From an uncultured Alphaproteobacteria bacterium (GTDB taxonomy: Bacteria > Pseudomonadota > Alphaproteobacteria > Rhizobiales > Beijerinckiaceae): 32,000 nt of DNA. Made by a program: the position numbers and the translations under genes. A model generated the notes under the pieces. It was not told the origin of the DNA. It searched no databases and saw nothing but the letters and a program-made list of their open reading frames with translations. The stretch is from contig CAVZAB010000025.1 of assembly GCA_963773155.1 (NCBI GenBank), positions 210,962 through 242,961 of the forward strand. Direction: 5' to 3'. Shown here piece by piece: positions 1 through 14,817 of the stretch (within the stretch, counting starts at the first letter, position 1; each line of letters starts with the position of its first letter).

Positions 1-926
1 CCGGCGCAGCGCCCGTCGGTAAGCCGGCATTCATTCAGCGCCCGCAACTCGTCCAAATTGCGCTGGAAGGTCTGGCCGCCTGGGCTGAGAAAGTGACCGC
101 CGAGGATTTGTTCGAAGAAGGTTTTGGCGCCGTAGGGACCAAGCGTGTGTGGTGCGAGGCCCTTCTCGGCCTCGAGTGCCGCGGTTTGGCGGTCGTGGTC
201 CTTGGCTGTGAGGCCGGCGGACTGCAGCACGTCGGCATCGCGGAGGATGGCGCACATCAGCCGCACGGACGGCTGGCTAAGGGCAGCAAATTCCTGGCGC
301 AGCCGGCCGAACGAGGCGACGTCGAAATTGGGTCGCAGGCTTGCTTCGAGTACCGGATACCCTTGCACGATATCGGTCAGAAGTATGGCGCAGCGCACAG
401 CCTCGATCGCCGGTTGCTCGACTTGGTTGCGCTGCAATATAGCGCCGACACAATCGGCGGCGAGTCGCTCGAGGCGAAATGGCTCGTAAGCTCTTGCGCC
501 GCTCCGATCGGCGATCTCATTGCCTCTACCATCATGATGTATGTCATGGCCGAAAGCGGCGCAGCAGCCGAGCAGCAAATCGGCCGGCTCGAAATGCACG
601 CCGAAGGTCGCTTCGGCGCGCTCTTGGCCGAGCATGGCAAGGGTGAGCCAAATCACGCCGACTTCGAGCGAATGCATGGGATTATGATAGGAATTGCCGT
701 GACCGGACCGATCCGCCTCGCGGGCGATCATCAACAAGGCCCGCGCTTGCGGGCTTTTGGCATGGTCGCCAAACAGGCCGACGATCTGTTCGCAGATGCG
801 CCGGGAGGGTTGGCGCGCATGGCGCAGCGAATCGAGGAGCTTGGACAGGTCGAGCGAATCGGCAAGGGCGGCGCGGCTACGGCCGAGCGTAAAGGCGAAG
901 GCCTCGAAACTCGACGGTTCGTTCAT
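1..926 (-). CDS. Class-I-type 3',5'-cyclic-nucleotide phosphodiesterase-like metal-dependent hydrolase (C-terminus off the left edge)
   Basis: My own translation of the minus strand, in the frame of the ATG at 926, is open all the way to position 1. That explains its absence from the ORF track, since no stop lies in the window. It reads MNEPSSFEAFAFTLGRS...GHGNSYHNPMHSLEVGVIWL...LLLGCCAAFGHDIHHDGRGNEIADRS...AVRCAILLTDIVQGY... HDIHHDGRGNEI (513-548) fits the PDEase_I signature pattern H-D-[LIVMFY]-x-H-x-[AG]-x(2)-[NQ]-x-[LIVMFY]. YHNxxH (about 659-691) and ILLTD resemble the other class I PDE metal-site motifs. Codon usage matches neighbouring genes. The start codon is uncertain (a GTG at 947 is also possible). 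Confidence 0.7.
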   Translation of the reverse strand, partial: MNEPSSFEAFAFTLGRSRAALADSLDLSKLLDSLRHARQPSRRICEQIVGLFGDHAKSPQARALLMIAREADRSGHGNSYHNPMHSLEVGVIWLTLAMLGQERAEATFGVHFEPADLLLGCCAAFGHDIHHDGRGNEIADRSGARAYEPFRLERLAADCVGAILQRNQVEQPAIEAVRCAILLTDIVQGYPVLEASLRPNFDVASFGRLRQEFAALSQPSVRLMCAILRDADVLQSAGLTAKDHDRQTAALEAEKGLAPHTLGPYGAKTFFEQILGGHFLSPGGQTFQRNLDELRALNECRLTDGRCA

Positions 927-1164
927 GAAACGCGGCAGTCCCGCCACGATCCCCTCGGGTCGCCATGAGGCGGCGTAAGACCTTGTCCGCGGCTTCGGGG
1001 ATTTTTTTTCGGCGGTAAGCCGCAAGAGATGCCTGTCCGGTCGATCAACCCGTGCCTCGCGACTTGCGTGCTGGAGCCGGCGCTGGGCCGGATTGCATAC
1101 CCTATCGATACACTCAGCCCGTCCCTGATTTCAACCCCGCTCGCAGCAGGGACATTAACTAACT

Positions 1165-1180
1165 GAAAAAGCGCTTTTTC
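1165..1180 (-). terminator. Possible weak intrinsic terminator or palindrome directly after the K+ channel stop
   Basis: Perfect 16-nt palindrome GAAAAAGCGCTTTTTC abutting the stop codon (cta at 1180-1182 on the plus strand). The stem is AU-rich with a U-run in the 3' arm. There is no GC-rich stem, so it is weak. Confidence 0.25.
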
Positions 1181-2316
1181 TATGCCTCGGATGGGGTGGG
1201 AGCGGCGGCTGGGGCGGCGGCGGGCGCGGTCATGCGGCGGGCCGCTTCGGCGCCGATCGCGGCAGTCAGTTCAGGGCGGCTTGCCGCAAGGCCGCGGAAG
1301 TCGGCGATATCGAGAACGAGCAATTGGGTTTCTCTGGTTGTCATGACTGTCGCGTTGCGCGGGCCGCCGGTTATCAGCGCGATCTCGCCGAAGAAGGCGC
1401 CGGGACCAAGCCGCACCGATTGCGGCTCGATTAGGATTTCGACTTCGCCGGCGATGATGAAGAACATGCAATCGCCGGGCTGGCCCTTGCGGGTCACAAT
1501 CGCCCGGCTCGGCAGTTCGCGCGGCCGCAGCAAGGCTGCGAGGTCGGCGATGGTCGAGGGGCCGGCCTCGCGAAAGAAAGGTACGCGCGACAGCATGTCC
1601 CAGGATTGCAGGAAATCGCGCCGTCGCATTTCCGCGGCAAAGCTGGTGGCAAGCAGGCCGGCGAGCAGCGCGAACAGAATAATGCCGCTGACCATCACCA
1701 GGCCGCCAAGCATGCGGCCGAGTCCGGTTACCGGGACCCGGTCGCCATAGCCGGTAGTGGTCAAGGTTGTGATCGTCCACCAGAGCGCATCGCCGACGCT
1801 GCCGAAGGCGTCAGGCTGGATCTTCGCCTCGGCGAGATAGGCGAGTACCGAGGCAGCGACCAGGACAACGGCAAACAGCAGCGCCAGGCCCAGGATCGAC
1901 ACGCGCTCGCGCAACAGAACGGTCATCAGCATCTGTGGGCCTGCGGAATAGCGGGCAAAGCGCAACAGCCAGAGCGAGGCAAGCAGCGGCGCGCCATCCG
2001 GGGTCCAATAGAAGGGTGCGGCGAGGGTGATTGGCAGAATGGTCAGAAGATCGAGGGCGCCCGGCAGGGACCAGGCCCAGCCGATTCGCGCCGCCTGCGG
2101 CTCATCGGCGTTGGACGGCGGCTCGAGTTGCGGCGCGAAAGCGAGCCTGAGGGCGGCATCGGCGAGAAAAATCAGGAGGATTGCGATCAGCATGGCCTGG
2201 CAGATGAGGCGGGCCGGTTCGGAAAGATTGGGCGAGGTATTGGCCATCATGGCGACGATGCCGAGAATGATCAGACAGCCCTCCGCCAGCCGGTAGACCC
2301 TGGCCGCGGGGGCCAT
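1180..2316 (-). CDS. Cyclic-nucleotide-gated K+ channel (6TM ion-transport domain plus C-terminal cNMP-binding domain, MloK1-like)
   Basis: K+ selectivity filter TTLTTTGYGD (about 1741-1761). Multiple TM helices with an S4-like LWLLRFARY segment. The C-terminal cNMP-binding phosphate-binding cassette reads FFGEIALITGGPRNATVMT. The ORF is open to 2520, but that N-terminal extension is non-protein-like and would overlap the divergent gene. The ATG at 2316 (MAPAARVYRL...) is preferred. Confidence 0.85.
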   Translation of the reverse strand: MAPAARVYRLAEGCLIILGIVAMMANTSPNLSEPARLICQAMLIAILLIFLADAALRLAFAPQLEPPSNADEPQAARIGWAWSLPGALDLLTILPITLAAPFYWTPDGAPLLASLWLLRFARYSAGPQMLMTVLLRERVSILGLALLFAVVLVAASVLAYLAEAKIQPDAFGSVGDALWWTITTLTTTGYGDRVPVTGLGRMLGGLVMVSGIILFALLAGLLATSFAAEMRRRDFLQSWDMLSRVPFFREAGPSTIADLAALLRPRELPSRAIVTRKGQPGDCMFFIIAGEVEILIEPQSVRLGPGAFFGEIALITGGPRNATVMTTRETQLLVLDIADFRGLAASRPELTAAIGAEAARRMTAPAAAPAAAPTPSEA

Positions 2317-2573
2317 GGATTTCTGGTCGAGCAGCGCCGCCAGACGGTGCGGGGGAACTTTCGTCACTATTGTCCACTCGACTTGGGGCTGGGCGAGGCT
2401 AGGGGGCGCCCGAACCAGCTCTTTGGACGCGTGACCATTGTGCCGTGCAATCGATCCGGCGCAAGGGCTGCGCGGGTCGACAATCCGGGTCGGAGTGTGA
2501 TGAAGTGCCCGCGGCGGCATGGAAAACCGGGCTCAGGATCGAGTCCTGCGGGTGTCAGGGGAACAGGCAGGGG

Positions 2574-5246
2574 ATGGAACGCAATCTCTTTGTCTACATC
2601 TGGCGACGCACGCGGCGCGAGCAAATCTGGATTCTGATCATTATCCTTTTGTCGATGCCGGCCAATTTCGCGCTGCTCGACCTGCCGAAATCCATCGTCA
2701 ACGGGCCGATTCAGGGTCGCGGATTTGAAAATGGCGCGACCCAGCGGTTGTTTTCGATCCGCCTGCCAGCGCCGGGCTTCCTCAGCGACACGGGCAACCT
2801 CACTCTGTTCGCCGGCCTAGAACTGCAGCGCGTTCCGGCGCTGTTCCTGCTCAGCAGCGCCTTCCTTGGGCTGGTCATCATCAATGGCATGTTCAAATAT
2901 TACATCAATACCTACAAGGGCCGCCTCGGCGAGCGCATGCTTCAAGTCCTCAGATTCGAGCTTTTCGACCGAATCCTGCGGTTTCCGCCCGCTGATCTCC
3001 ACCGAGTCAAGCCGGCCGAAATCGCGACAATGATCAAGGACGAGGTCGAGCCGCTCGGCGGCTTCATCGGCGACGCCTTTGTCCAACCGTTTTTTCTCGG
3101 CGGCCAGATTGTCACTTCGCTCGCCTTCATATTCATCCAGAACATCTGGCTTGGCTGTGTGACGATTCTGCTGCTCGCCGTGCAGGGTTTGGTGATTCCG
3201 CGCCTTCGCCGCCGGCAGCTCGAATTGTCACGCCAGCGGCAAGTGTCGGCACGCGCCCTGGCTGGCCGGATCGGCGAGGTCATCGAGGACATGCCGAGCA
3301 TCCGCAGCAATGATACGGCGAATTTTCAGCGGGCCGACATTGTCAATCGTCTTACCCATGTCTTCTCGATCCGCTTTGCCTTGTACCAATGGAAGTTTTT
3401 CGTCAAGTTCCTGAACAACCTCTTGGCCCAGCTGACGCCCTTTTTTTTCTATGCGATCGGCGGCTATTTTGCGACCATCGGCCGGCTCGACATCGGTCAA
3501 TTGGTTGCGGTGATTTCTGCCTATAAGGAATTGCCTTCGCCGGTCAAGGAGCTGATCGACTGGGATCAGCAGCGGCTGGATGTGGAGGTCAAATACCATC
3601 AGGTCATCGACCAGTTCTCGGCCGAGGGGACGCTGCTGCCGGCGGCGATGCCGGAGCCACCGCGACCCTTGCCGCGACTAACCGGCGATCTTGTCTTCGA
3701 CGCGGTGACGGTGAGCGACCTATCGCATGAAAAGCTCCTGGACGGACTGAGTTTTGCTATGGCGCTTACCGAAGTCATCGCACTCGTCAACGCCGATCGC
3801 GGCGGTGCCGAAGTGGTGGCTGAAGCCATAGCCGGTCTTGCCGAAATCGATTCGGGACAAATCAGCGTTGGCGGGCGCAACCTGATCGATTGGCCGGTGT
3901 CGGTCACGGCGCGGCGGATCTCCTATGCCGGTCCGGAGCCATTCTTTCCGCAATCGACTTTGCTCGACGCATTGGTCTCCGGGCTGAAGTTTGCGGCCAG
4001 TCCGCCGCCCGATCCGGATGCTCGGGCGATCCCCAAACACTTGCAAATCATCGAAGTGGAGGGTGTCGATCTCGATTTCAATCGCGACTGGATCGACTAT
4101 GACATCGCCGGGTCGACCGGCCCCGGCGAATTATACGAGCGCGTCAAGGCCACGCTTCAGATCGTCGACCTCGACAACGATGCGGTGAGCTGGGGGCTTG
4201 ACCGCCAGCTTGATCCGCGTAGCGACAGCGAGGCTCTGCGGGAAAGGCTGGTTGCGGCAAGAGGCGCCTTTCGCAGCCGCCTCAAAGAGGCGGGGCTGAC
4301 GCATCTCGTCGAACCGTTCGACCCCGACACCTATTGCCATCAGGCCACTATTTTCGAGAACATTCTGTTTGGCACGACCCGCGGGGATGCCGCCAAATTG
4401 ATCGAAGGATCGCAGCTGCAGAAATTGCTCGCTAAGCAGCGCCTCGACGGCGATTTATTCGGCGTCGGTCGGGAGATTGCGGCAACGGTCATCGAGGTCT
4501 TTTCCGGCATTACCGCCGACAATCGGTTATTTGCGCAGCAGGCGCTGATGCCGGCCGAGGAATTCGCCGAATACGATCAAGCCTTGAAACGGCTTGGGCC
4601 GCGGACCAGTTTTGATCAGGCGAATCGAGCCGATCGCCTGCGCTTCATCCGCCTCGCTCTCAATTACATCGAACCGCGCGACCGGCTCGGTCTCCTCGAT
4701 GCCGAACTTGAAAGGCGGCTGGTCGAAGCGCGCAAGGCGTTCCGTGAGCAGCTCGGCGCCGATCAGACCGACATCGTTTTCTACGATCCGCAGACTTACA
4801 ATCCGGCCGCCTCGATCCAGGAGAACATTCTCCTCGGCAGGGTCGCTTTTGGCGTCGCCTCGGCCAGTGACCGCGTCAACGGCTTCGTGCGGACGATTGT
4901 TGACGATCTCGGGCTGCGCGACGTCGCTCTCAAGGCCGGGCTGACTTTCGACATCGGGCCGGCCGGCAAGCGCTTGTCGCGGGTCCAACGCCAGAAGCTC
5001 TCGATGGCGAGAGCCTTGCTTCGCCGGCCTGATCTTCTGGTTGCAAATGGCGCCCTTTCGGCGCTCGACGGGCTCAGTCAGGGTCAGGTGGTTAACCGAG
5101 TCCTGGCGCGGGCGCGTGGAGCGAACAACGATCAGCGCTTCGGCATTGTTTGGGCCATGGCGAGTGCGCAATTTGCCGAACATTTTGACCGAGTGCTAGT
5201 CCTCGACCATGGCAAGCGCATTGAGAATGCACAGGCCGCGAAATGA
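2574..5246 (+). CDS. ABC exporter-like fused permease/NBD protein with degenerate, expanded nucleotide-binding domain
   Basis: The N-terminal roughly 330 aa look like an ABC type-1 transmembrane domain (several long hydrophobic helices). In the C-terminal region the Walker A position reads IALVNADRGGAEV (about 3778-3816, no GKS/T). The signature reads LSRVQRQ (about 4971-4994) and Walker B reads LLVANGALSALD (about 5033-5068, with D-E replaced by N-G). About 400 aa separate the Walker A and signature positions. The start is taken at ATG 2574 (MERNLFVYIWRR...), preceded by GGGG. The ORF-track start at 2445 gives an implausible leader. Confidence 0.75.
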   Translation: MERNLFVYIWRRTRREQIWILIIILLSMPANFALLDLPKSIVNGPIQGRGFENGATQRLFSIRLPAPGFLSDTGNLTLFAGLELQRVPALFLLSSAFLGLVIINGMFKYYINTYKGRLGERMLQVLRFELFDRILRFPPADLHRVKPAEIATMIKDEVEPLGGFIGDAFVQPFFLGGQIVTSLAFIFIQNIWLGCVTILLLAVQGLVIPRLRRRQLELSRQRQVSARALAGRIGEVIEDMPSIRSNDTANFQRADIVNRLTHVFSIRFALYQWKFFVKFLNNLLAQLTPFFFYAIGGYFATIGRLDIGQLVAVISAYKELPSPVKELIDWDQQRLDVEVKYHQVIDQFSAEGTLLPAAMPEPPRPLPRLTGDLVFDAVTVSDLSHEKLLDGLSFAMALTEVIALVNADRGGAEVVAEAIAGLAEIDSGQISVGGRNLIDWPVSVTARRISYAGPEPFFPQSTLLDALVSGLKFAASPPPDPDARAIPKHLQIIEVEGVDLDFNRDWIDYDIAGSTGPGELYERVKATLQIVDLDNDAVSWGLDRQLDPRSDSEALRERLVAARGAFRSRLKEAGLTHLVEPFDPDTYCHQATIFENILFGTTRGDAAKLIEGSQLQKLLAKQRLDGDLFGVGREIAATVIEVFSGITADNRLFAQQALMPAEEFAEYDQALKRLGPRTSFDQANRADRLRFIRLALNYIEPRDRLGLLDAELERRLVEARKAFREQLGADQTDIVFYDPQTYNPAASIQENILLGRVAFGVASASDRVNGFVRTIVDDLGLRDVALKAGLTFDIGPAGKRLSRVQRQKLSMARALLRRPDLLVANGALSALDGLSQGQVVNRVLARARGANNDQRFGIVWAMASAQFAEHFDRVLVLDHGKRIENAQAAK

Positions 5247-5289
5247 TCGAATTCGGCGGGGGGCGAGGATCCAATGCGGGGAGAGTGTC

Positions 5290-5745
5290 GTGAGCCTGTT
5301 GAAGCAAGACGTTGAGGTTCTGCGTCGCGTGCCGTTGTTTGCGCCAATTGACACGGCGCGGCTAAAGCTCTTGGCCTTCACCTCGCAACGCCTGTCGTTT
5401 GAGGCCGACCAGGTCCTATTCGAGCAGAATGAGGCTGGCGACACGGCCTATGTGCTGATCGATGGGACCGCCGACGTCTTCGTCAAGGCCGGCCCGCGTG
5501 AGGTCAAGGTCGCAACCGTCGGGCGCTACGGCTTCGTCGGAGAGATTGCGATTTTGTGCGACGTGCCGCGCACCGCGACGGTACGAACGACGAGCCGGGT
5601 GGAAGCCCTAGTCATCCAGAAGGATCAATTGCTCGAGCTCTTGCGCAATTTTCCCGACATAGCCATCGCGATGATCCGGGAACTAGCTTTACGCCTCAAC
5701 CAGACCAATCAGAAACTGGCGGCGCTGGCGCAGCGGCAGAATTGA
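5290..5745 (+). CDS. Stand-alone cyclic-nucleotide-binding (CAP/CNB-fold) domain protein
   Basis: Translation includes VPLF..., LSFEADQVLFEQNEAGDTAYVLIDGTADVF..., and FVGEIAILCDVPRTATVRT, a canonical phosphate-binding cassette. The GTG at 5290 is preceded by GGGGAGAG at good spacing. The ATG at 5209 would overlap the ABC gene by 38 nt. Confidence 0.8.
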   Translation: MSLLKQDVEVLRRVPLFAPIDTARLKLLAFTSQRLSFEADQVLFEQNEAGDTAYVLIDGTADVFVKAGPREVKVATVGRYGFVGEIAILCDVPRTATVRTTSRVEALVIQKDQLLELLRNFPDIAIAMIRELALRLNQTNQKLAALAQRQN

Positions 5746-5749
5746 CGCT

Positions 5750-6523
5750 TCAGCGGCCCTTCCACTGTGGTTTGCGCTTTTCCGCAAAGGCGCGCGCGCC
5801 CTCATTCAGGTCTTGCGAGGCGATGACCTTTTGGACGAGATCGGCGGCGTCGTGAATGAGGAAGGCCTCATGCTCGCTCGCGGTCTCGGTCAGCCGCAGC
5901 AATTGCTTGATGGCCGGGAATAGGAGTGGCGGGCCTTCGGCAAGCTGAGTGGCTATTTGGCGCGCCTTGGCAAGGGCGCCGCCCTTTTCGACGACATGGT
6001 TGACGAGACCCCAGTGTTTGGCTTCCGCGACATCCATCCAGCGCCCGGTCAGCAGAAATTCGACCGCGACATGGTAGGGAATGCGGCGGCGCAATTTGAT
6101 CGTGCCTGCATCGGGCAGGACACCCACATTAATTTCGGGCAGGGCAAAGCGGGCATGCTCCTCGGCCACGATAATATCGGTGCCGAGCATAAGTTCCATG
6201 CCACCGCCGCAGGCAATGCCGTTGACGGCGGCGATAATTGGCTTGTTCAGATTGCGGGGGTAATTCAGGCCGCCAAAGCCTCCTTCGCCCCAGTCGGAAT
6301 CCGCCGCCTCGCCCTCGGCAGCAGCTTTGAGATCCCAGCCGGCCGAGAAGAACTTTTCGCCGGCGCCGGTCAGAATGGCGATGCGCAGATTTGGATCGTC
6401 GCGAAAGGCGGAAAAGATCTGGTTGAGGCGCAGACTGGCCTGCCGGTCGAGAGCGTTTGCCTTCGGGCGGTCAATCGCAATCTCTAGAATTGAGCCGTTT
6501 TGCGTGGTTCTAATTTCCGCCAT
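5750..6523 (-). CDS. Enoyl-CoA hydratase/isomerase (crotonase) family protein, CaiD-like
   Basis: MAEIRTTQNGSILEIAIDRPKANALD...ILTGAGEKFFSAGWDLK...PIIAAVNGIACGGGMELMLGTDIIVAEEHARFALPEINVGVLP is a typical crotonase fold. The start is taken at ATG 6523. The upstream ORF extension to 6661 is not crotonase-like. Confidence 0.85.
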   Translation of the reverse strand: MAEIRTTQNGSILEIAIDRPKANALDRQASLRLNQIFSAFRDDPNLRIAILTGAGEKFFSAGWDLKAAAEGEAADSDWGEGGFGGLNYPRNLNKPIIAAVNGIACGGGMELMLGTDIIVAEEHARFALPEINVGVLPDAGTIKLRRRIPYHVAVEFLLTGRWMDVAEAKHWGLVNHVVEKGGALAKARQIATQLAEGPPLLFPAIKQLLRLTETASEHEAFLIHDAADLVQKVIASQDLNEGARAFAEKRKPQWKGR

Positions 6524-6690
6524 GCCCCGCCTTTGTCGCCGCAATTCGTCCCTTTTGCAAGGTCGCCAAAGTGTTCGCTCCGATAAATCATCTCTGGCCA
6601 AATCGCTCCCAGTTCGGGTCGGTTCGATCGGCCAGGACCGGTTGCCGGTTCGGGCCGGCAACCCGAAGACATGCTCTCAAAGCACAAACC

Positions 6691-7344: not shown

Positions 7345-8352
7345 ATGAGCGAATGTCGACCTTTGCGGGTGATATTGGCAAAGCCGCGAGGCTTTTGTGC
7401 CGGTGTGGTTCGGGCGATTGAGATCGTTGAGCGGGCGCTGGCAATGTTTGGGCCGCCCGTCTATGTCCGACATGAAATTGTCCACAATCATCATGTCGTC
7501 GAAAGATTGCGGGCCATGGGCGCGGTTTTTGTTGACGAGCTCGACGAGATCCCGACCGGAGCCCAGACGATCTTCAGCGCGCATGGCGTTTCGCCGGCGG
7601 TGATGCGTCGGGCAAAGGAGCGCGGCCTCGATGTCATTGACGCGACCTGTCCGCTGGTCGAGCGGGTTCACCGGGAAGTGCGCCGCTACGCTGAGCGTGG
7701 CTATGAGATCGTTTTGATTGGCCATGACGGCCATGCTGAGGTGGAAGGCACGCGCGGTCAGATTGAGAGCCCGATGCACGTAATTTCGTCCAAAAACGAG
7801 GTTTTCGACTTAAAGATCGCGGATCCGACCCGGATCGCCTATGTCACCCAGACGACCCTCAGCCTGCTTGATACCAAAGAAATTATTGCAGCGCTCAAAC
7901 AGCGGTTCCCGCTAGCGGTCGGCCCGGAGACGCGCGACATTTGCTATGCGACCCAGAATCGTCAGACCGCGGTTCTGACGATGACCCATGATGTGCAACT
8001 CCTATTGGTTGTCGGCGCGCCGAACAGCTCAAATTCCAATCGTTTGCGCGAGCTGGGCGCGAGTGCCGGTGTGGCGAGCCATTTGATTCAATCCGCGGCG
8101 GCGATCGACCCAAACTGGCTTGACGGCGTTGATGTCGTTGGCGTGACGGCAGGTGCATCGGCGCCGGAAATCCTCGTCCAAGAGACGATCGAACGCCTGG
8201 CTCTCCACCGAACTCTGACCATAGAAACCCTTGCGGGCGATGATGAACTTGTCCAATTTCGGCTGCCGACGCGACTTGTGGATCCACCCGTCCTTGCCGG
8301 GGCGCGTGTTCAGGCCAGTGAAGCGGTTGATGCGACTGAACTGCGGATATGA
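7345..8352 (+). CDS. ispH: 4-hydroxy-3-methylbut-2-enyl diphosphate reductase (MEP pathway)
   Basis: LRVILAKPRGFCAGVVRAIEIVERAL...VYVRHEIVHNHHVV...TCPLV.KVH-like...GHDGHAEVEGT...VTQTTLS...ICYATQNRQ...VVGAPNSSNSNRL shows the characteristic LytB/IspH motifs, including the three Cys ligand regions. Confidence 0.95.
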   Translation: MSECRPLRVILAKPRGFCAGVVRAIEIVERALAMFGPPVYVRHEIVHNHHVVERLRAMGAVFVDELDEIPTGAQTIFSAHGVSPAVMRRAKERGLDVIDATCPLVERVHREVRRYAERGYEIVLIGHDGHAEVEGTRGQIESPMHVISSKNEVFDLKIADPTRIAYVTQTTLSLLDTKEIIAALKQRFPLAVGPETRDICYATQNRQTAVLTMTHDVQLLLVVGAPNSSNSNRLRELGASAGVASHLIQSAAAIDPNWLDGVDVVGVTAGASAPEILVQETIERLALHRTLTIETLAGDDELVQFRLPTRLVDPPVLAGARVQASEAVDATELRI

Positions 8353-8469
8353 TGGATGACCTTGCACTTTTCCGTTGAGGCATTTAGGCGCCAGGCCCGA
8401 TCGAGTTTCGCCTTTCTCTGATTGGGTCACTTGGCGCATGTTTCGACAGCGAATTGGGGTCGCCTGACA

Positions 8470-9493
8470 ATGCCAGCCTATCCGTTCTCCGCCATAGTTG
8501 CGCAAGAGACGATGAAGCTGGCGCTATTGATTGCTGCCGTTGACCCCTCCGTTGGTGGCGTATTGGTCTTCGGGGACCGCGGTACCGGCAAATCGACGGC
8601 GGTGCGCGCCTTGGCGGCTTTGCTTCCCAAAATGCGGGTCGTGAATAATTGTGCCTATAGTTGCGATCCTGGCAAACCTGCCGGCCTGTGCGGCGCGTGC
8701 GGTCCGGAGCGCAGAAAAAAGGATTTACCGAGCCATCTCGCACCCATTCCCGTCGTCGACCTGCCGCTGGGTGCGACCGAGGACCGGGTGATTGGCGCAT
8801 TGGATCTCGAGCTGGCGCTGGCCAAGGGCGAGAAGGCCTTTGAACCCGGCCTTCTCGCGCGCGCCCACCGAGGCTTTCTTTATATTGACGAGGTTAATCT
8901 TCTGGAGGATCACCTCGTTGATTTGCTGCTCGATGTCGCAGCCTCGGGCGAGAACGTTGTCGAACGGGAGGGTCTCAGTATTCGACACCCCGCGCGATTT
9001 GTCCTGGTTGGCAGCGGCAATCCAGAAGAGGGAGAATTGCGTCCGCAGCTGCTCGACCGATTTGGATTGGCGGTGGATGTCAAGACTTCCGGATAGCCTG
9101 GATGTCCGGGTTGAGGTCGTCAGTCGGCGTGACGCATATGACCGCGACCCGGCGGCTTTTTTGGCCAAATGGGACGGCAAGGATCGTAGTTTGCGGCGAC
9201 GCATCTCAGCCGCTCGGCAAAGGCTGGCCGCGGTCGATGTGCCTTTGCAGACGCTTCAGGATGCAACGAGACTGTGCATGGCGCTTGGGACGGACGGCCT
9301 TCGTGGTGAATTGACGTTGGTTCGCACGGCGCGCGCGCTAGCGGCCCTTGACGGGGACGAGACGGTCGAAGCGACGCATTTGCGGCGAATTGCTATACCG
9401 GCACTGTCGCATCGCTTGCGACGCAATCCATTGGATGATTCGTCGTCTGTCACGCGGGTTGAGCGCGCGCTTAGGGAAGTCCTCGGCCCATGA
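8470..9493 (+). pseudogene. bchI: Mg-chelatase ATPase subunit I, interrupted by a +1 frameshift near 9087-9088
   Basis: [20 protein letters not shown]...GDRGTGKST (Walker A)...[10 protein letters not shown] (Walker B)...[11 protein letters not shown], then a stop at 9094. The next frame continues [20 protein letters not shown]...GLRGELTLVRTARALAALDG...RRNPLD. Deleting one T of GACTTC (9084-9089) gives a continuous 340-aa BchI. Confidence 0.9.
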
Positions 9494-11298
9494 TGCCGCC
9501 AGAAGAAGCACGGCAACAATGGGCGGGCGATGCGACTTTGGCAGCCAAGCTTTTCGCCGTTGATCCGGTCGCAACCGGGATTGCGCTCAGGGCCGATGCC
9601 GGGCCGGTTCGCGATCTCTGGCTGTCGCAGTTGCGTCTCCTGGTCGGCTCAACTCCAATTCGACGGCTGCCGCTCAATATCAGCGACGATCGCTTGCTTG
9701 GCGGTGTTGATTTGACGGCAACTTTGCACGCTGGTCGGCTGGTCGCAGAGCGTGGCTTGCTTGCCGAGGCCGATGGCGGGATTGTTATCATGGCGATGGC
9801 GGAACGCGTGGCGCCGATGGCGGTCGCGCGGATCACCCGCATGCAAGACACGCGAAGCGTTGCTGTTGAGCGAGCCGGCCTTGGTCTCGTGCTACCCGCT
9901 CGGATCGGATTAATTGCCCTTGACGAGGGAATTGCCGCCGATGAGCGTCCGCCCGCCTCGCTTATGGATCGCCTGGCATTTCATATTGATCTAACTCAAG
10001 TCGCATTGGCGGATCTCGGCGAGCCTGGCTGCCGCCAGGAGATCGAAGCCGCGACAGACAGGCTGAGGACGCTAACCGCCGAGGCTGGCGCCGTCAGCGC
10101 ATTGTGTCGTGCCGCGATGAGCCTTGGCATAGCTTCGGTTCGCGCCCCGCTTTTTGCCTTGCAGGTCGCGCGTATTGCGGCGGCGCTGGCTCGCCGCTCA
10201 CGATTGGAAGCGCCAGATCTTGCGATCGCCGCGCGGCTCGTTTTGGCGCCGCGCGCGACGCGAGATCCCAGACAACAAACCGAGGAAGATGCCGGTCAAG
10301 CGCCCGAACAGGCCCAAAGTGAAGGAGAAGGTTCGGACATAGAGGGCGAGGCGGCTGACCAAAACCGTCAAGCGGATCGCGCTTGCGCAGCGCTTGCTGA
10401 TCTTGTCGTACAGGCCGCGGCCTCGGCACTGCCGCTTGGCCTGCTGAAGCAATGCGCGGGCGAGGGCATCCGGCATGCGAGAATGGCCAATGCCGGGCGG
10501 GCCGGTGCGTCGATGCGTTCGGCTCAGCGCGGGCGACCGATTGGGACAAGGAGCGGCCAACTCCGACAAGGACGGTTGAATATTGTGGAAACGCTACGTG
10601 CTGCAGCGCCGTGGCAGGCCCTGCGGCGACGCGAAGTGCAAACCCAAAACAACGGAACGAATATCGCTAGCGAAGGCCAGGGCCGCCTTCTGGTTCGAAC
10701 TGACGATTTTAGGTTGATCCGCTATGAGCAGCGCACGCAGACAACAACCATTTTTGCGGTTGACGCCTCCGGTTCCTCGGCTTTGCATCGTCTCGCGGAA
10801 GCTAAGGGCGCCGTTGAGCTGCTTTTGAATGATTGTTATGTCCGGCGGGATCATGTTGCGGTGCTCGCCTTTCGCGGCCAAGGTAGCGATTTGATTCTAC
10901 CGCCGACGCGCTCGTTGGTGCGGGCCAAGCGAGGCTTGGCCGGTCTGCCGGCAGGCGGTGCAACGCCGCTTGCCAGCGGTATAGCGGGCGCCACAGCGAT
11001 GGCGGAGAATATTCGTCGGCACGGGCACACGCCGATCATTGTGATTTTGACCGACGGACGGGCCAATATAGCGCGCGACGGAACTATGGGGCGGCCGCAG
11101 GCAATAGAAGATGCCCTTAGTGCTGCCCGCAATTTGAGGCAATCGGGCTGCACAACGCTGCTGATCGACACTTCGCCGCGGCCACAGGCTCTTGCCGAAC
11201 GTGTGGCGCGCGAAATGGGGGCCCGCTACCTGCCGCTTCCCTATGCCGATGCAACAAAATTATCGGAAGCGGTTCGGTTGGTTTCGGCTCCGGGTTGA
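9490..11298 (+). CDS. bchD: Mg-chelatase subunit D
   Basis: ATGA overlap with the bchI stop. It has an N-terminal AAA-like half, an acidic linker (EEDAGQAPEQAQSEGEGSDIEGEAAD) and a C-terminal vWA domain with MIDAS DASGS (FAVDASGSSAL). Confidence 0.9.
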   Translation: MMPPEEARQQWAGDATLAAKLFAVDPVATGIALRADAGPVRDLWLSQLRLLVGSTPIRRLPLNISDDRLLGGVDLTATLHAGRLVAERGLLAEADGGIVIMAMAERVAPMAVARITRMQDTRSVAVERAGLGLVLPARIGLIALDEGIAADERPPASLMDRLAFHIDLTQVALADLGEPGCRQEIEAATDRLRTLTAEAGAVSALCRAAMSLGIASVRAPLFALQVARIAAALARRSRLEAPDLAIAARLVLAPRATRDPRQQTEEDAGQAPEQAQSEGEGSDIEGEAADQNRQADRACAALADLVVQAAASALPLGLLKQCAGEGIRHARMANAGRAGASMRSAQRGRPIGTRSGQLRQGRLNIVETLRAAAPWQALRRREVQTQNNGTNIASEGQGRLLVRTDDFRLIRYEQRTQTTTIFAVDASGSSALHRLAEAKGAVELLLNDCYVRRDHVAVLAFRGQGSDLILPPTRSLVRAKRGLAGLPAGGATPLASGIAGATAMAENIRRHGHTPIIVILTDGRANIARDGTMGRPQAIEDALSAARNLRQSGCTTLLIDTSPRPQALAERVAREMGARYLPLPYADATKLSEAVRLVSAPG

Positions 11299-11313
11299 AT
11301 TTAGGATCTTCGG

Positions 11314-12201
11314 ATGATTGATGCCGATAGACCGGATTGGGCGCACGATGGTCGCGATTGGCCGCATCGACAGGCCAGTCAATTCGTTCGCGCCGGCGGC
11401 GTCCGGTGGCACGTGCAACGATTTGGGCAAGGGCCCGCCGCCCTTCTGGTCCATGGGACGGGTGCGTCGAGCCATTCTTGGTGCCGCCTCGCGGAATTGC
11501 TTGCCCAGCGTTTTACCCTTGTGATCCCGGATCTGCCCGACCATGGCTTCAGTGAAGCACCGGCCCATTACCGCCTGTCGTTGCCAGCGATGTCGGACGG
11601 TCTGCAAAAGCTTTTGAATGTTCTTGAAGTCAGTCCGGTGCTCGCGGTCGGGCATTCGGCCGGGGCAGCCGTATTGGCATCTTCCTGCCTTAAAGGGGCG
11701 ATTAAGCCTCGACTTCTGATAAGCGTCAACGGCGCCTGGTTGCCGTTTAAGGGGATCGCCGGCCAAATTTTTCCGTCGATTGCCAAGCTGCTTTACCTCA
11801 ATCCCTTTACTTCGCGCCTCTTTGCCTGGAGCGTCGATCGTTCAACGGTGCTGCGGCTGGTCGGGGAGACCGGATCGAGGATCGATGGGCAAGGTCTCGA
11901 ACTATACGAAAGATTGCTGCGGCGACCCGGGCATGTTGCGGGTGCCTTGGGCATGATGGCAAATTGGGATCTTGAGCCCCTGGTTCGACAGCTGGCTCAA
12001 CTTGAATTGCCAGTGATACTGCTTGCCGGAAGCAAAGACCGGTCGATACCTCCACAGGAGTCGCGGCGGGTTGCCGCCATGCTGCCGAACGCACGGGTGG
12101 AAATCCTGGAGGGCCTTGGACATCTTGCCCACGAAGAGCGTCCGAACGAGATCGCGGCCCTGGTCCTAAAACTTGCCGCCGAAGCGGGAATTATCGAATG
12201 A
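11314..12201 (+). CDS. bchO: Alpha/beta-hydrolase BchO (Mg-chelatase accessory protein)
   Basis: Canonical position after bchD. Alpha/beta-hydrolase motifs LLVHGTGASSHSW and nucleophile elbow GHSAG, with a C-terminal GHLAHEE. Confidence 0.8.
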   Translation: MIDADRPDWAHDGRDWPHRQASQFVRAGGVRWHVQRFGQGPAALLVHGTGASSHSWCRLAELLAQRFTLVIPDLPDHGFSEAPAHYRLSLPAMSDGLQKLLNVLEVSPVLAVGHSAGAAVLASSCLKGAIKPRLLISVNGAWLPFKGIAGQIFPSIAKLLYLNPFTSRLFAWSVDRSTVLRLVGETGSRIDGQGLELYERLLRRPGHVAGALGMMANWDLEPLVRQLAQLELPVILLAGSKDRSIPPQESRRVAAMLPNARVEILEGLGHLAHEERPNEIAALVLKLAAEAGIIE

Positions 12202-12245
12202 ATCAAGCCAGACCGGACTTGCCGTCATATCATTTACACTGCTAG

Positions 12246-12263
12246 TGTCCAACAATGCTGACA
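12246..12263. promoter_or_regulatory. PpsR/CrtJ-type palindrome candidate overlapping the crtI start codon
   Basis: TGTCCAACAATGCTGACA follows TGTC-N10-GACA. The crtI ATG (12255) lies inside the spacer. It sits in the 53-nt bchO-crtI gap. Confidence 0.35.
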
Positions 12264-13781
12264 CGTGTCACATATGCCCCGGCGGGCCCATTTGAACAAC
12301 GATCGTCGGCGGTCGTTATTGGGAGCGGGTTCGGCGGTCTTGCTGCAGCTATTCGGCTCGGTGCACGCGGTTATGCCGTAACGGTGCTTGAAAAGCTCGA
12401 TGCACCCGGCGGGCGTGCTTATGTCCACAAGCAGGACGGTTTCACGTTCGACGCTGGACCAACAATTGTAACAGCGCCCTTTCTGTTTGAGGAGCTTTGG
12501 CGCCTGTGTGGACGCAAATTCTCCGACGATGTCGAATTGCGGCCAATGGAACCGTTCTACCGGATCAGATTTCACGACGGCTCGCATTTTGACTACAGCG
12601 GCGATCGCGATGCGATGCGTTCGGAGATCATGAGAGTCTCGCCAGTCGACCTGCCCGGTTACGAAGCCTATATGCGCGAAAGCGCAGCCATTTATCGGAT
12701 CGGTTTCGAACAGCTTGGGCACGTATCGTTTGGTTCGCCGCTCGATATGCTGCGCATTGTTCCAGACCTTGTTCGGCGCCGAGCCTACCGCAGCGTCTTT
12801 GATCAGGTTGCCAAGCATATTTCGGACGAGAAGTTGCAGGCGGTGTTTAGTTTCCATCCGCTTCTCATCGGGGGTAATCCGTTCCGAGCGAGTGCCATCT
12901 ATTGTCTTATTGCCCATCTCGAGCAGAAATTTGGGGTTCATTTCGCAATGGGCGGAACGGGGCGCCTGATTGAGGGTATGGTGCGATTGATCGAGGACCA
13001 GGGCGGCATTGTCAGATACCGGGCGGAAGTTGAGAGAATCATAGTCAAGGATGGCGTCGCCCGCGGGGTTGAGCTTAGCGGGGGGGAGAGGATTCGCGCC
13101 GATATCGTCGTTTCAAATGCCGATTCCGCCTGGACCTATCGCTATCTTGTGCCCGCCGAATTGCGGCGGCGCTGGACTAACAGGAAACTCGATCGTTCGC
13201 GCTATTCGATGGGCCTGTTCGTCTGGTATTTTGGGACAAGCAAGATCTATCCCCGGGTTAAGCATCACACGATCATCTTGGGACGCCGATACCGCGAACT
13301 TATCGAGGACATTTTTGAACGTAAGATCCTCGCTTCGGATTTTTCTCTCTATCTGCACCGTCCGACCGCGAGCGATCCGTCTTTGGCGCCGGCGGGCTGC
13401 GACGCATTTTATGTCTTGTCTCCAGTTCCTAATCTCGGCGGTTCGATCGACTGGGTAGAGCGCTCAGACGAGTATCGCCAGGCGATTGCCCGGCAATTGG
13501 ATGATACCGAACTCCCAGGGTTTTTGCCGCACGTTGTTACATCGCGCGTCACAACGCCGCTCGACTTTCAAGATCGGCTTCTGTCTTACCGTGGCGCGGC
13601 TTTTGGCCTTGAACCGCTTTTGACCCAAAGCGCTTGGTTTAGACCCAACAATCGCAGCGAGGACGTCAAGCATCTCTATCTGGTCGGCGCCGGGACGCAT
13701 CCTGGGGCTGGACTGCCGGGGGTGCTGTCATCGGCGCGCGTCCTTGATATTGTGGTGCCAGATGCCGCCCTCTTCGCCTAA
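12255..13781 (+). CDS. crtI: Phytoene desaturase
   Basis: N-terminal FAD fold AVVIGSGFGGLAAAIRLGARGYAVTVLEK. The C-terminal motif is LYLVGAGTHPGAGLPGVLSSA. This is the only in-frame start after the upstream stop at 12243. Confidence 0.9.
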   Translation: MLTRVTYAPAGPFEQRSSAVVIGSGFGGLAAAIRLGARGYAVTVLEKLDAPGGRAYVHKQDGFTFDAGPTIVTAPFLFEELWRLCGRKFSDDVELRPMEPFYRIRFHDGSHFDYSGDRDAMRSEIMRVSPVDLPGYEAYMRESAAIYRIGFEQLGHVSFGSPLDMLRIVPDLVRRRAYRSVFDQVAKHISDEKLQAVFSFHPLLIGGNPFRASAIYCLIAHLEQKFGVHFAMGGTGRLIEGMVRLIEDQGGIVRYRAEVERIIVKDGVARGVELSGGERIRADIVVSNADSAWTYRYLVPAELRRRWTNRKLDRSRYSMGLFVWYFGTSKIYPRVKHHTIILGRRYRELIEDIFERKILASDFSLYLHRPTASDPSLAPAGCDAFYVLSPVPNLGGSIDWVERSDEYRQAIARQLDDTELPGFLPHVVTSRVTTPLDFQDRLLSYRGAAFGLEPLLTQSAWFRPNNRSEDVKHLYLVGAGTHPGAGLPGVLSSARVLDIVVPDAALFA

Positions 13782-14817
13782 CCGCCTCGCCGTCACCCCT
13801 GCTGATATTGCGACATGCCGGATTTCTATAAGAGACGGCTCGCACAGCTTTTACGCTGCATCGGCGCTGCTCCCGCAGGAGATTCGCACGGCCGCCCGCG
13901 GCCTATATGCTTTTTGCCGTCTTTCCGATGACGCGATTGATCTTGATGGAGGCTGCCTGGCTGCGTTCGAGCGCTTGCAGGAGCGACTTAATCGAATCTA
14001 TCAGGGGCGGCCCATGTCAATCCCTGCAGATCGAGCGCTCGCCGATATTGTCTACCGCTACGCAATCCCTCGCGCCCTGCCGGATGCCTTGCTCGAGGGG
14101 CTCGAATGGGACGCAAAGTCGCGACGTTATGAAGAACTCGCGGATCTCTTCGCTTACGCGACCCGCGTTGCGGGATCCGTCGGGGCAATCATGACTTTGA
14201 TAATGGGCGTGCGGGCGCCGGACGTTGTTGCGCGGGCCTGCGATTTGGGAATCGCAATGCAGCTCACCAACATTGCGAGGGATGTTGGTGAGGACGCTCG
14301 GCGAGGAAGGGTCTATTTACCTTTGCGATGGTTGAGGGATGCTAAGATTGATCCGGATGGGTTTCTTGCGGCACCTCAATTGAGCGATGCACTGCGCCAT
14401 GTTGTCCGGCGCCTTCTCAGAACTGCCGATACCTTATATGCGCGCTCCGAGGGAGGTATCGCGGGTTTGCCTATGGGCTGCCGGCCCGCGATCTATGCCG
14501 CCCGCTTCATCTATGCGGAGATTGGGCGGGAAATCGAACGCAATGGGCTCGATAGCCTATCAACTCGAGCGCACGTGTCGTCGAAAAGAAAAGCATGGCT
14601 CATTCTTGGCGCTGGAGTTGCGGCGCTGATTGGCAAGCCGGGACGGGCGTCGCCCTGTGTCGAGGAGGCGCAATTTCTGATCGAAGCTGTAAGAGCCTCG
14701 CATCAATCCGCCTGGACGACGCTCGACTTATCTCGGCTGCGGTGGTGGAACCTTGTCGGCCAGGTCAATTGGTTTGTTGATCTTGTCGAGAAGTTGGAGC
14801 GCCGCGAACAATATTGA
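13762..14817 (+). CDS. crtB: Phytoene synthase
   Basis: SHSFYAAS...LYAFCRLSDDAIDL...YAYATRVAGSVG...NIARDVGEDARRGRVYLP are squalene/phytoene synthase motifs. The start is either ATG 13762 or 13744, and both overlap the crtI 3' end. Confidence 0.9.
   Translation: MPPSSPNRLAVTPADIATCRISIRDGSHSFYAASALLPQEIRTAARGLYAFCRLSDDAIDLDGGCLAAFERLQERLNRIYQGRPMSIPADRALADIVYRYAIPRALPDALLEGLEWDAKSRRYEELADLFAYATRVAGSVGAIMTLIMGVRAPDVVARACDLGIAMQLTNIARDVGEDARRGRVYLPLRWLRDAKIDPDGFLAAPQLSDALRHVVRRLLRTADTLYARSEGGIAGLPMGCRPAIYAARFIYAEIGREIERNGLDSLSTRAHVSSKRKAWLILGAGVAALIGKPGRASPCVEEAQFLIEAVRASHQSAWTTLDLSRLRWWNLVGQVNWFVDLVEKLERREQY

Follow-up and report, generated by a model that had tools for sequence, protein, structure and literature searches.

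A hidden alphaproteobacterial gene for a predicted class I-like phosphodiesterase beside a cyclic-nucleotide-gated channel gene

Class I cyclic nucleotide phosphodiesterases (PDEs) are described as mainly eukaryotic, and the widespread bacterial cAMP hydrolases are class III enzymes such as CpdA and Rv0805 (PMC4320098, PMC4222275, PMC13087886). A stretch of 32,000 nucleotides from an uncultured Alphaproteobacteria bacterium of the Beijerinckiaceae (GenBank assembly GCA_963773155.1, contig CAVZAB010000025.1, positions 210,962-242,961; hereafter the window, at its full length) raised the question of whether a relative of the class I enzymes is encoded in bacteria: a first-pass annotation, made from the sequence alone, had placed a hidden gene for a "eukaryote-type" class I PDE on the minus strand of positions 1-926, downstream of a gene for a channel gated by cyclic nucleoside monophosphates (cNMPs). 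The gene, its family and its surroundings were analysed computationally. The gene is almost certainly real and its product almost certainly has the class I PDE fold. It is reasonably probable (roughly 0.6) that the product is a metal-dependent PDE for a 3',5'-cyclic nucleotide, predicted to end the signal for the adjacent channel and for proteins with a cyclic-nucleotide-binding domain (CNBD).

Translation of the reverse complement of positions 1-926 gave 308 stop-free codons, from an ATG at 926 to the window edge. The frame encodes the motifs SYHNPMHSLEV, FGHDIHHDGRGNEIA and CAILLTDIVQ, in exact agreement with the open frame and the YHNPMHS, HD-block and LLTDIV motifs of the first-pass annotation. 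The window product was identical to protein P0190 (329 aa; found in NCBI and ENA, with no source name listed), which supplied the 14 C-terminal codons beyond the window edge (GLALEAVADLMRPS) and so the C-terminus that the first-pass annotation had lacked. In P0190 the start is a GTG at 947; this codon is GTC in L040, a 90%-identical locus, and the homologues P0001-P0007 begin with MND or MNE. On this comparative evidence the conserved ATG at 926 is taken as the true start, for a predicted full length of 322 aa, and the database start of P0190 is probably 7 codons too long. The feature at 1..926 (minus strand) is the 5' part of the PDE-like gene, with 308 of its 322 codons in the window, and its assignment is based on the translation, the homologues and the substitution pattern.

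The list of open reading frames (ORFs) for this region contained just one entry, at 93..968 on the plus strand (291 aa), and the minus-strand gene was hidden because the ORF lister drops ORFs that run past the window end. Codon usage and GC content by codon position scored the two overlapping frames nearly equally (0.32 versus 0.29) and could not separate them; substitution patterns against L040, with 89.6% identity over the PDE-like coding sequence, were therefore used instead. In the minus frame, differences fell 20/14/62 at codon positions 1/2/3, and the codon changes were 53 synonymous and 32 non-synonymous. The same differences read in the plus frame gave 14 synonymous and 71 non-synonymous changes, and the plus frame has an internal stop in L040. 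No match to the 291-aa product was found in Pfam or NCBIfam, and every homologue found belongs to the minus-frame product. A plus-strand gene with the minus frame as its shadow, which would fit the almost equal frame scores, is in the light of these results extremely improbable: as judged from the comparison with L040, the minus-strand gene is real and under selection and the 291-aa ORF is a shadow, as had been claimed.

Kinship with class I PDEs was assessed with sequence profiles. PDEase_I (PF00233) was the sole Pfam family matched by the protein (24.7 bits, E 2.3e-5), at a score under the gathering score of 24.8 and over profile positions 1-85 of 238 only; no significant family was found in NCBIfam, and no defence-system model in PADLOC was matched. 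The comparison with PF00233 that the first-pass annotation had proposed pointed to the expected family and stopped just short of membership, and since this single-sequence match is partial and lies 0.1 bit below the gathering score, the case rests on profile and fold evidence. PF00233 was matched by 27 of 33 relatives, with P0108 (54.5 bits), P0080 (33.5 bits) and P0143 (30.0 bits) above threshold, and precomputed PF00233 matches were present on P0011 and P0015; the family is already partly captured by Pfam, through few members.

The HD block, HDIHHDGRGNEI (residues 127-138), had been said to fit the PDEase_I signature residue by residue. It satisfies PROSITE pattern PS00126, which we take to be H-D-[LIVMFY]-x-H-x-[AG]-x(2)-[NQ]-x-[LIVMFY], and is the sole match in the six-frame translation of the window (random expectation 0.007 per window, from first-order Markov random windows). 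A profile built from the 33 relatives matched 133 PDB sequences at E<=1; the 60 listed were all class I PDEs, the best among them being RhoPDE 5vyd (5e-6), Trypanosoma cruzi PDEC, PDE8A and PDE7A, and one alignment spans the N-terminal helices through the DAD motif. For profile-profile comparison, a catalytic domain sequence of human PDE4D2 was used that was verified as identical to PDB 3sl5_A over 335 residues. The 33-sequence alignment covered only 62 columns of PDE4D2 in hhalign (Prob 68), and a 157-sequence family alignment was therefore needed: it aligned with PDE4D2 at Prob 94.8 and E 5e-8 over 279 columns (query 9-302, template 1-325). Controls gave Prob 0.5 for reversed PDE4D2, 0.3 for shuffled PDE4D2 and 0.4 for an HD-GYP alignment.

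The structure of the window protein was predicted with AlphaFold2 (pLDDT 91.3, pTM 0.92) as all-helical with one small hairpin at residues 137-147, and the model shows the class I catalytic-domain fold of about 16 alpha-helices. The best 50 Foldseek matches in the PDB were all PDE catalytic domains (prob 1.00, TM-score 0.55-0.62, about 330 columns, 12-19% identity). A specific relationship with class I PDE catalytic domains is supported by the borderline Pfam match, the PDB profile search, the hhalign comparison with its controls and the predicted fold.

The next question was whether the active site is intact. Positions were mapped to PDE4D2 through the hhalign alignment, not through superposed structures, conservation was counted in 157 relatives, and all motif coordinates are on the minus strand. 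In YHNPMHS (669..689), H81 corresponds to the general acid H160 and H85 to the Zn ligand H164, each kept in 156/157 relatives (catalytic-residue roles are summarised in PMC13095499). In the signature block (513..548), H127 and D128 correspond to the metal ligands H200 and D201 (157/157 and 156/157), and H131 to H204, the conserved His of HDxxH (141/157). E153 in FRLE (468..470) is equivalent to E230, which supports metal-bound waters, and is kept in all 157; the same supporting role belongs to T271-D272 (ATDMS), equivalent to T184-D185 in LLTDIV (372..377), with T184 in 157/157 and Asp or Glu at position 185 in 151/157. In DADVLQSAGL (210..239), D232 corresponds to the Zn ligand D318 (157/157). 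The metal ligands and general acid of PDE4D2 (H164, H200, D201, D318 and H160) are represented by H85, H127, D128, D232 and H81, each in at least 156 of the 157. At 117..128 (A267 to F270), F270 is equivalent to the clamp residue F372 and is Phe in 147/157, and A267 aligns with the glutamine Q369; this column holds 39 Thr, 32 Ala and 30 Lys among others, and Gln is outside its five commonest residues. The family also has invariant residues of its own, S236 (in RDADxxxSAGL; 155/157) and E254. With the catalytic residues kept and the Q369 glutamine not conserved, the evidence supports a putatively active, metal-dependent phosphodiesterase whose recognition of the base would be unlike that of eukaryotic PDEs.

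One subclade departs from this pattern: in L009, L015 and L028 (PDE-like genes at about 6001-6650), HDxxH is replaced by HDxxY or HDxxF and YHN by YHS, and its members may have altered chemistry or a regulatory function.

Compared with the known class I PDEs (PF00233; human PDE4D2, PDE8A and PDE7A, T. cruzi PDEC, choanoflagellate RhoPDE), the protein has the same all-helical catalytic fold along the whole domain and a full set of metal ligands together with the general-acid His, and its YHNxxH, HDxxHxG, LE, TD and AD(L/V) motifs and clamp Phe follow one another as in those enzymes. It differs in being bacterial, in its identity of 13-19%, in consisting of one domain of about 320 aa that stands alone and lacks regulatory modules, in an H85-H127 spacer 6 residues longer, in a beta-hairpin insertion after HDxxHDG, in the family-specific S236 and E254, in the absence of the glutamine switch, and in a Pfam score at or under the cut-off. 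The HD superfamily is common to class I-like PDEs and to the HD-GYP phosphodiesterases of cyclic di-GMP (Pfam HD_5). HD-GYP proteins are likewise metal-dependent signalling PDEs with an HD dipeptide, and HD-GYP domains occur fused or adjacent to members of the PDE-like family; they differ in motifs, fold elaboration and substrate, no HD_5 match was found in Pfam, and hhalign against the HD-GYP domains of L008 and L018 gave Prob 0.4. The class III bacterial cAMP PDEs (CpdA, Rv0805, Icc) have the role proposed here, cAMP degradation in bacteria, and are not homologous.

How widely the family occurs bears on its origin. A word search returned 34 homologues of about 320 aa, and an exhaustive profile search returned 929 clusters at 50% identity, 514 of them with E<=1e-10. 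All retrieved source names of PDE-like proteins were "hypothetical protein" or "uncharacterized protein", apart from P0143, which was named for its other domain. Thirty-nine genome loci were drawn from a species-representative genome collection and, by their record labels, belong to Rhizobiales, Xanthobacteraceae, Beijerinckiaceae, Acetobacteraceae, Zavarzinia, Burkholderiales, Gamma- and Deltaproteobacteria and Micavibrio, with single metagenome-assembled genomes (MAGs) of Bacteroidetes, Lactobacillales and Enterobacteriaceae. Two unusual domain arrangements were observed: P0143 (645 aa) is a fusion of phosphoribosyl pyrophosphate (PRPP) synthetase and a PDE-like domain, and P0109 (L038:5650-8976, Micavibrio, about 1100 aa) has two tandem PDE-like domains followed by UPF0167.

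A gene recently acquired from a eukaryote, a true "eukaryote-type" PDE, would account for the PROSITE signature and for the description of class I PDEs as mainly eukaryotic (PMC4320098, PMC4222275). This origin is highly improbable, because identity to eukaryotic PDEs is only 13-19% and the family is a broad, deeply diverged bacterial one (929 clusters at 50% identity; 39 loci across Alpha-, Beta-, Gamma- and Deltaproteobacteria with single MAGs of other groups); the composition of the gene is moreover like that of its neighbours, and no sign of recent eukaryotic origin was found in identity, family breadth or composition. Of the first-pass description, class I kinship stands and "eukaryote-type" is misleading for a bacterial family of about 930 clusters.

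The substrate was approached through genomic context. Class III nucleotide cyclase genes lay within about 5 kb of the PDE-like gene at 11/39 loci, directly adjacent in 7 of those 11; the type was assigned at all but L021, with CHASE2-cyclases at nine loci and a SAM-cyclase-AAA protein at L020 (counts from local hidden Markov models, with the domains confirmed by Pfam for L007, L018 and L020). At 4 loci the genes form an operon of a response regulator (RR)-GAF-HD-GYP protein, the PDE-like protein and a CHASE2-cyclase, and P0094 (1021 aa) is the matching RR-GAF-HD-GYP-PDE-like fusion; activation by cAMP has been published for one GAF-HD-GYP protein (bioRxiv 10.1101/2021.11.05.467447), which was counted for the cNMP link. 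CNBD proteins adjoin PDE-like genes in three unrelated architectures: the channel of the window, a CRP-like regulator accompanied by a small CNBD protein (L015, L028), and a CNBD-patatin phospholipase (L017, L025). A cyclase or CNBD neighbour was present within about 5 kb at 13/39 loci, and in 6/16 lineages defined at >=50% identity.

In the window, the PDE-like gene lies 253 bp downstream of the channel gene on the same strand, in agreement with the first-pass annotation. The channel (1180..2520, minus strand; exact start uncertain) is a MloK1-type cyclic-nucleotide-gated K+ channel, with Pfam Ion_trans, Ion_trans_2 and cNMP_binding domains, a TTGYGD filter and a C-terminal CNBD; MloK1 in the PDB (4chv/2zd9) was matched at E 1e-67 over residues 68-436, and both the K+ filter and the phosphate-binding motif of the CNBD are intact. 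The likeness to MloK1 (Mesorhizobium loti mll3241) concerns this upstream gene and not the PDE-like gene, and the pairing of the two is confined to one clade.

From these observations the following mechanism is predicted. The product would be an all-helical phosphodiesterase of the cytoplasm that has the class I catalytic fold and works with two metal ions. A Zn/Mg pair would be bound by H85, H127, D128 and D232, the general acid would be H81, the waters on the metals would be supported by E153 and T184, and F270 would provide the stacking contact with the base. Its most likely substrate would be cAMP or cGMP, as suggested by the class III cyclases and CNBD proteins encoded near members of the family. 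Its activity would reduce the cNMP sensed by the MloK1-type channel and by the CNBD protein paired with an ABC exporter (described below), so that the channel and the CNBD effectors would be switched off. The reality of the gene and the selection on it, its homology to class I PDEs, the conservation of the catalytic residues and the co-occurrence of the family with cyclases and CNBD proteins are shown by the analysis; which substrate is cleaved, whether the gene shares a transcript with the channel gene and what its physiological role would be are inferred.

Two other functions have to be weighed against that of a 3',5'-cNMP PDE. The protein could be an HD-superfamily phosphohydrolase of PDE fold that acts on a different phosphoester, for instance a 2',3'-cNMP, cCMP or cUMP, some other nucleotide, a dinucleotide of cyclic or linear form, or a phosphodiester derived from lipids. 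In its favour are the lack of a conserved purine-reading glutamine, the hairpin insertion at 137-147 and the invariants particular to the family (S236, E254). Some contexts also point elsewhere, either to nucleotides (the PRPP-synthetase fusion P0143, purine catabolism at L045, a pyrimidine nucleoside phosphorylase at L038) or to lipids (CNBD-patatin, and the Aas-like protein encoded nearby in Zavarzinia and L036), and SpdA sets a precedent, as this rhizobial protein was predicted to be a cAMP PDE and turned out to act specifically on 2',3'-cNMP (PMC4222275). We regard a different phosphoester as the main rival and as rather unlikely, since class III cyclases and CNBD proteins, which make or bind 3',5'-cNMP, recur beside the family in several lineages, the catalytic residues are all retained, as is the clamp Phe, and no similarity to HD-GYP was detected with hhalign. 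A catalytically silent protein of PDE fold, serving as cNMP sensor or scaffold, would agree with the divergent substrate pocket and with HDxxY for HDxxH in the subclade of L009, L015 and L028; it is very unlikely, because H81, H85, H127, D128, E153, T184 and D232 are each kept in at least 156 of the 157, the window protein included, a pattern typical of an active enzyme.

Several observations weigh against the reading as a cNMP PDE related to class I enzymes and are taken together here. The base-reading glutamine is replaced by A267 in the window protein, as mapped by hhalign without superposed structures; the predicted fold is substantially diverged from PDEs (TM-score about 0.6, root-mean-square deviation 6-7 A); the PF00233 match ends 0.1 bit under the gathering score and covers the N-terminal third only; and PS00126 is fitted by just 37/157 family members. 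As to context, there is no cyclase in the 32-kb window, the channel adjoins the PDE-like gene only in the 90% clade, and most close relatives have unrelated neighbours (DAO/arginase, urease/purine catabolism, PFOR). The chance expectation for a cyclase or CNBD neighbour, about 1/39 loci, is itself a rough estimate from gene frequencies, not a measured rate.

The remaining genes of the module were then described. On the plus strand, divergent from the channel gene, an ABC exporter-type protein is encoded at 2445..5246 (likely start near 2574), with an ABC_membrane domain and a weak, below-cut-off ABC_tran match; a homologue of 890 aa is present at the same position in L040 and L046, and L043, too, has an ABC_membrane gene upstream of its PDE-like gene, which is 59% identical. 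Overlapping its 3' end, a small stand-alone cNMP-binding protein of 178 aa is encoded at 5209..5745 (plus strand; Pfam cNMP_binding 9.8e-19). This protein matched TIGR03896 (cyc_nuc_ocin, "bacteriocin-type transport-associated") at 1e-10, under the cut-off, and in PADLOC it resembles Pycsar effectors over their CNBD part; these two likenesses look like what CNBDs share in general. The four-gene arrangement is repeated in L040, L046 and L047, where the PDE-like gene is followed, 37 bp on, by a DAO-family gene. The 59%-identical clade (L043) retains the ABC and DAO genes as neighbours and lacks the channel, and tblastn searches with the channel, ABC and CNBD proteins of the window found no channel in the distant genome loci.

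The spacer between the channel and PDE-like genes (927..1179, minus strand; 253 bp) is about 90% identical to L040 and L041 outside a 24-nt insertion, a level close to the 89.6% of the coding sequence. A promoter and terminator scan of 850-2750 revealed neither a terminator-like nor a sigma-70-like site. The insertion, at 1001-1024, is absent from L040 and L041 and reads TTGCGGCTTACCGCCGAAAAAAAA on the minus strand: a small GCGG/CCGC hairpin followed by an A8 run, which fits a terminator in neither orientation.

Further neighbours recur around the family, many of its loci having non-signalling ones (DAO/arginase, urease/purine catabolism, PFOR, MatE, penicillin amidase, Aas-like acyltransferase). 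In L046 (9007-12349) and L043 (2670-5998), a DAO-family oxidoreductase gene lies 36-37 bp past the PDE-like stop on the same strand and is followed by a convergent class III aminotransferase gene and then an arginase-family gene; the DAO-family gene may belong to one operon with the PDE-like gene and has no evident connection with cNMP. A second recurrent neighbour is an Aas-like protein with major facilitator superfamily (MFS), acyltransferase and AMP-binding domains (L012:1881-5417 and L036:2105-5569; also L019, L022, L027, L003 and L039), whose gene is divergently upstream in the loci from Zavarzinia and again in L036, a very distant locus of low GC. The Aas-like neighbour and CNBD-patatin (L017, L025) hint at a link with lipids for which the cNMP reading offers no explanation.

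Farther along the window, at 7345-14817, is a photosynthesis and isoprenoid cluster with genes for LytB/IspH, BchI-like and BchD-like Mg-chelatase subunits, an alpha/beta hydrolase, a CrtI-like phytoene desaturase and a CrtB-like phytoene synthase; in L046 and L047 the cNMP module is flanked by the same LytB and BchI genes. A phototrophic alphaproteobacterium is the probable host.

A wider proposal can be made only tentatively, at somewhat less than even odds: the family would be the bacterial sister group of the class I PDE domain of eukaryotes and an overlooked, dedicated 3',5'-cAMP/cGMP hydrolase of cyclase-rich Proteobacteria that reads the base without a glutamine switch, found here in a compact cNMP module with a MloK1-type channel and a CNBD/ABC pair beside a photosynthesis cluster. 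The literature searched contained no description of a bacterial class I-like PDE family, an absence that is no proof that the family is undescribed, and no pairing of a PDE-like gene with a MloK1-type channel was found there.

Many Alpha- and Betaproteobacteria have dozens of class III cyclases and few known PDEs. A family of about 930 clusters with the class I fold and an intact active site, encoded beside cyclases, CNBD effectors and a channel, is a testable candidate for the missing signal-terminating enzyme, and it bears on where the eukaryotic PDE domain came from. The physiology of MloK1-type channels is obscure; if the proposal is true, these channels would gain a genetically linked partner.

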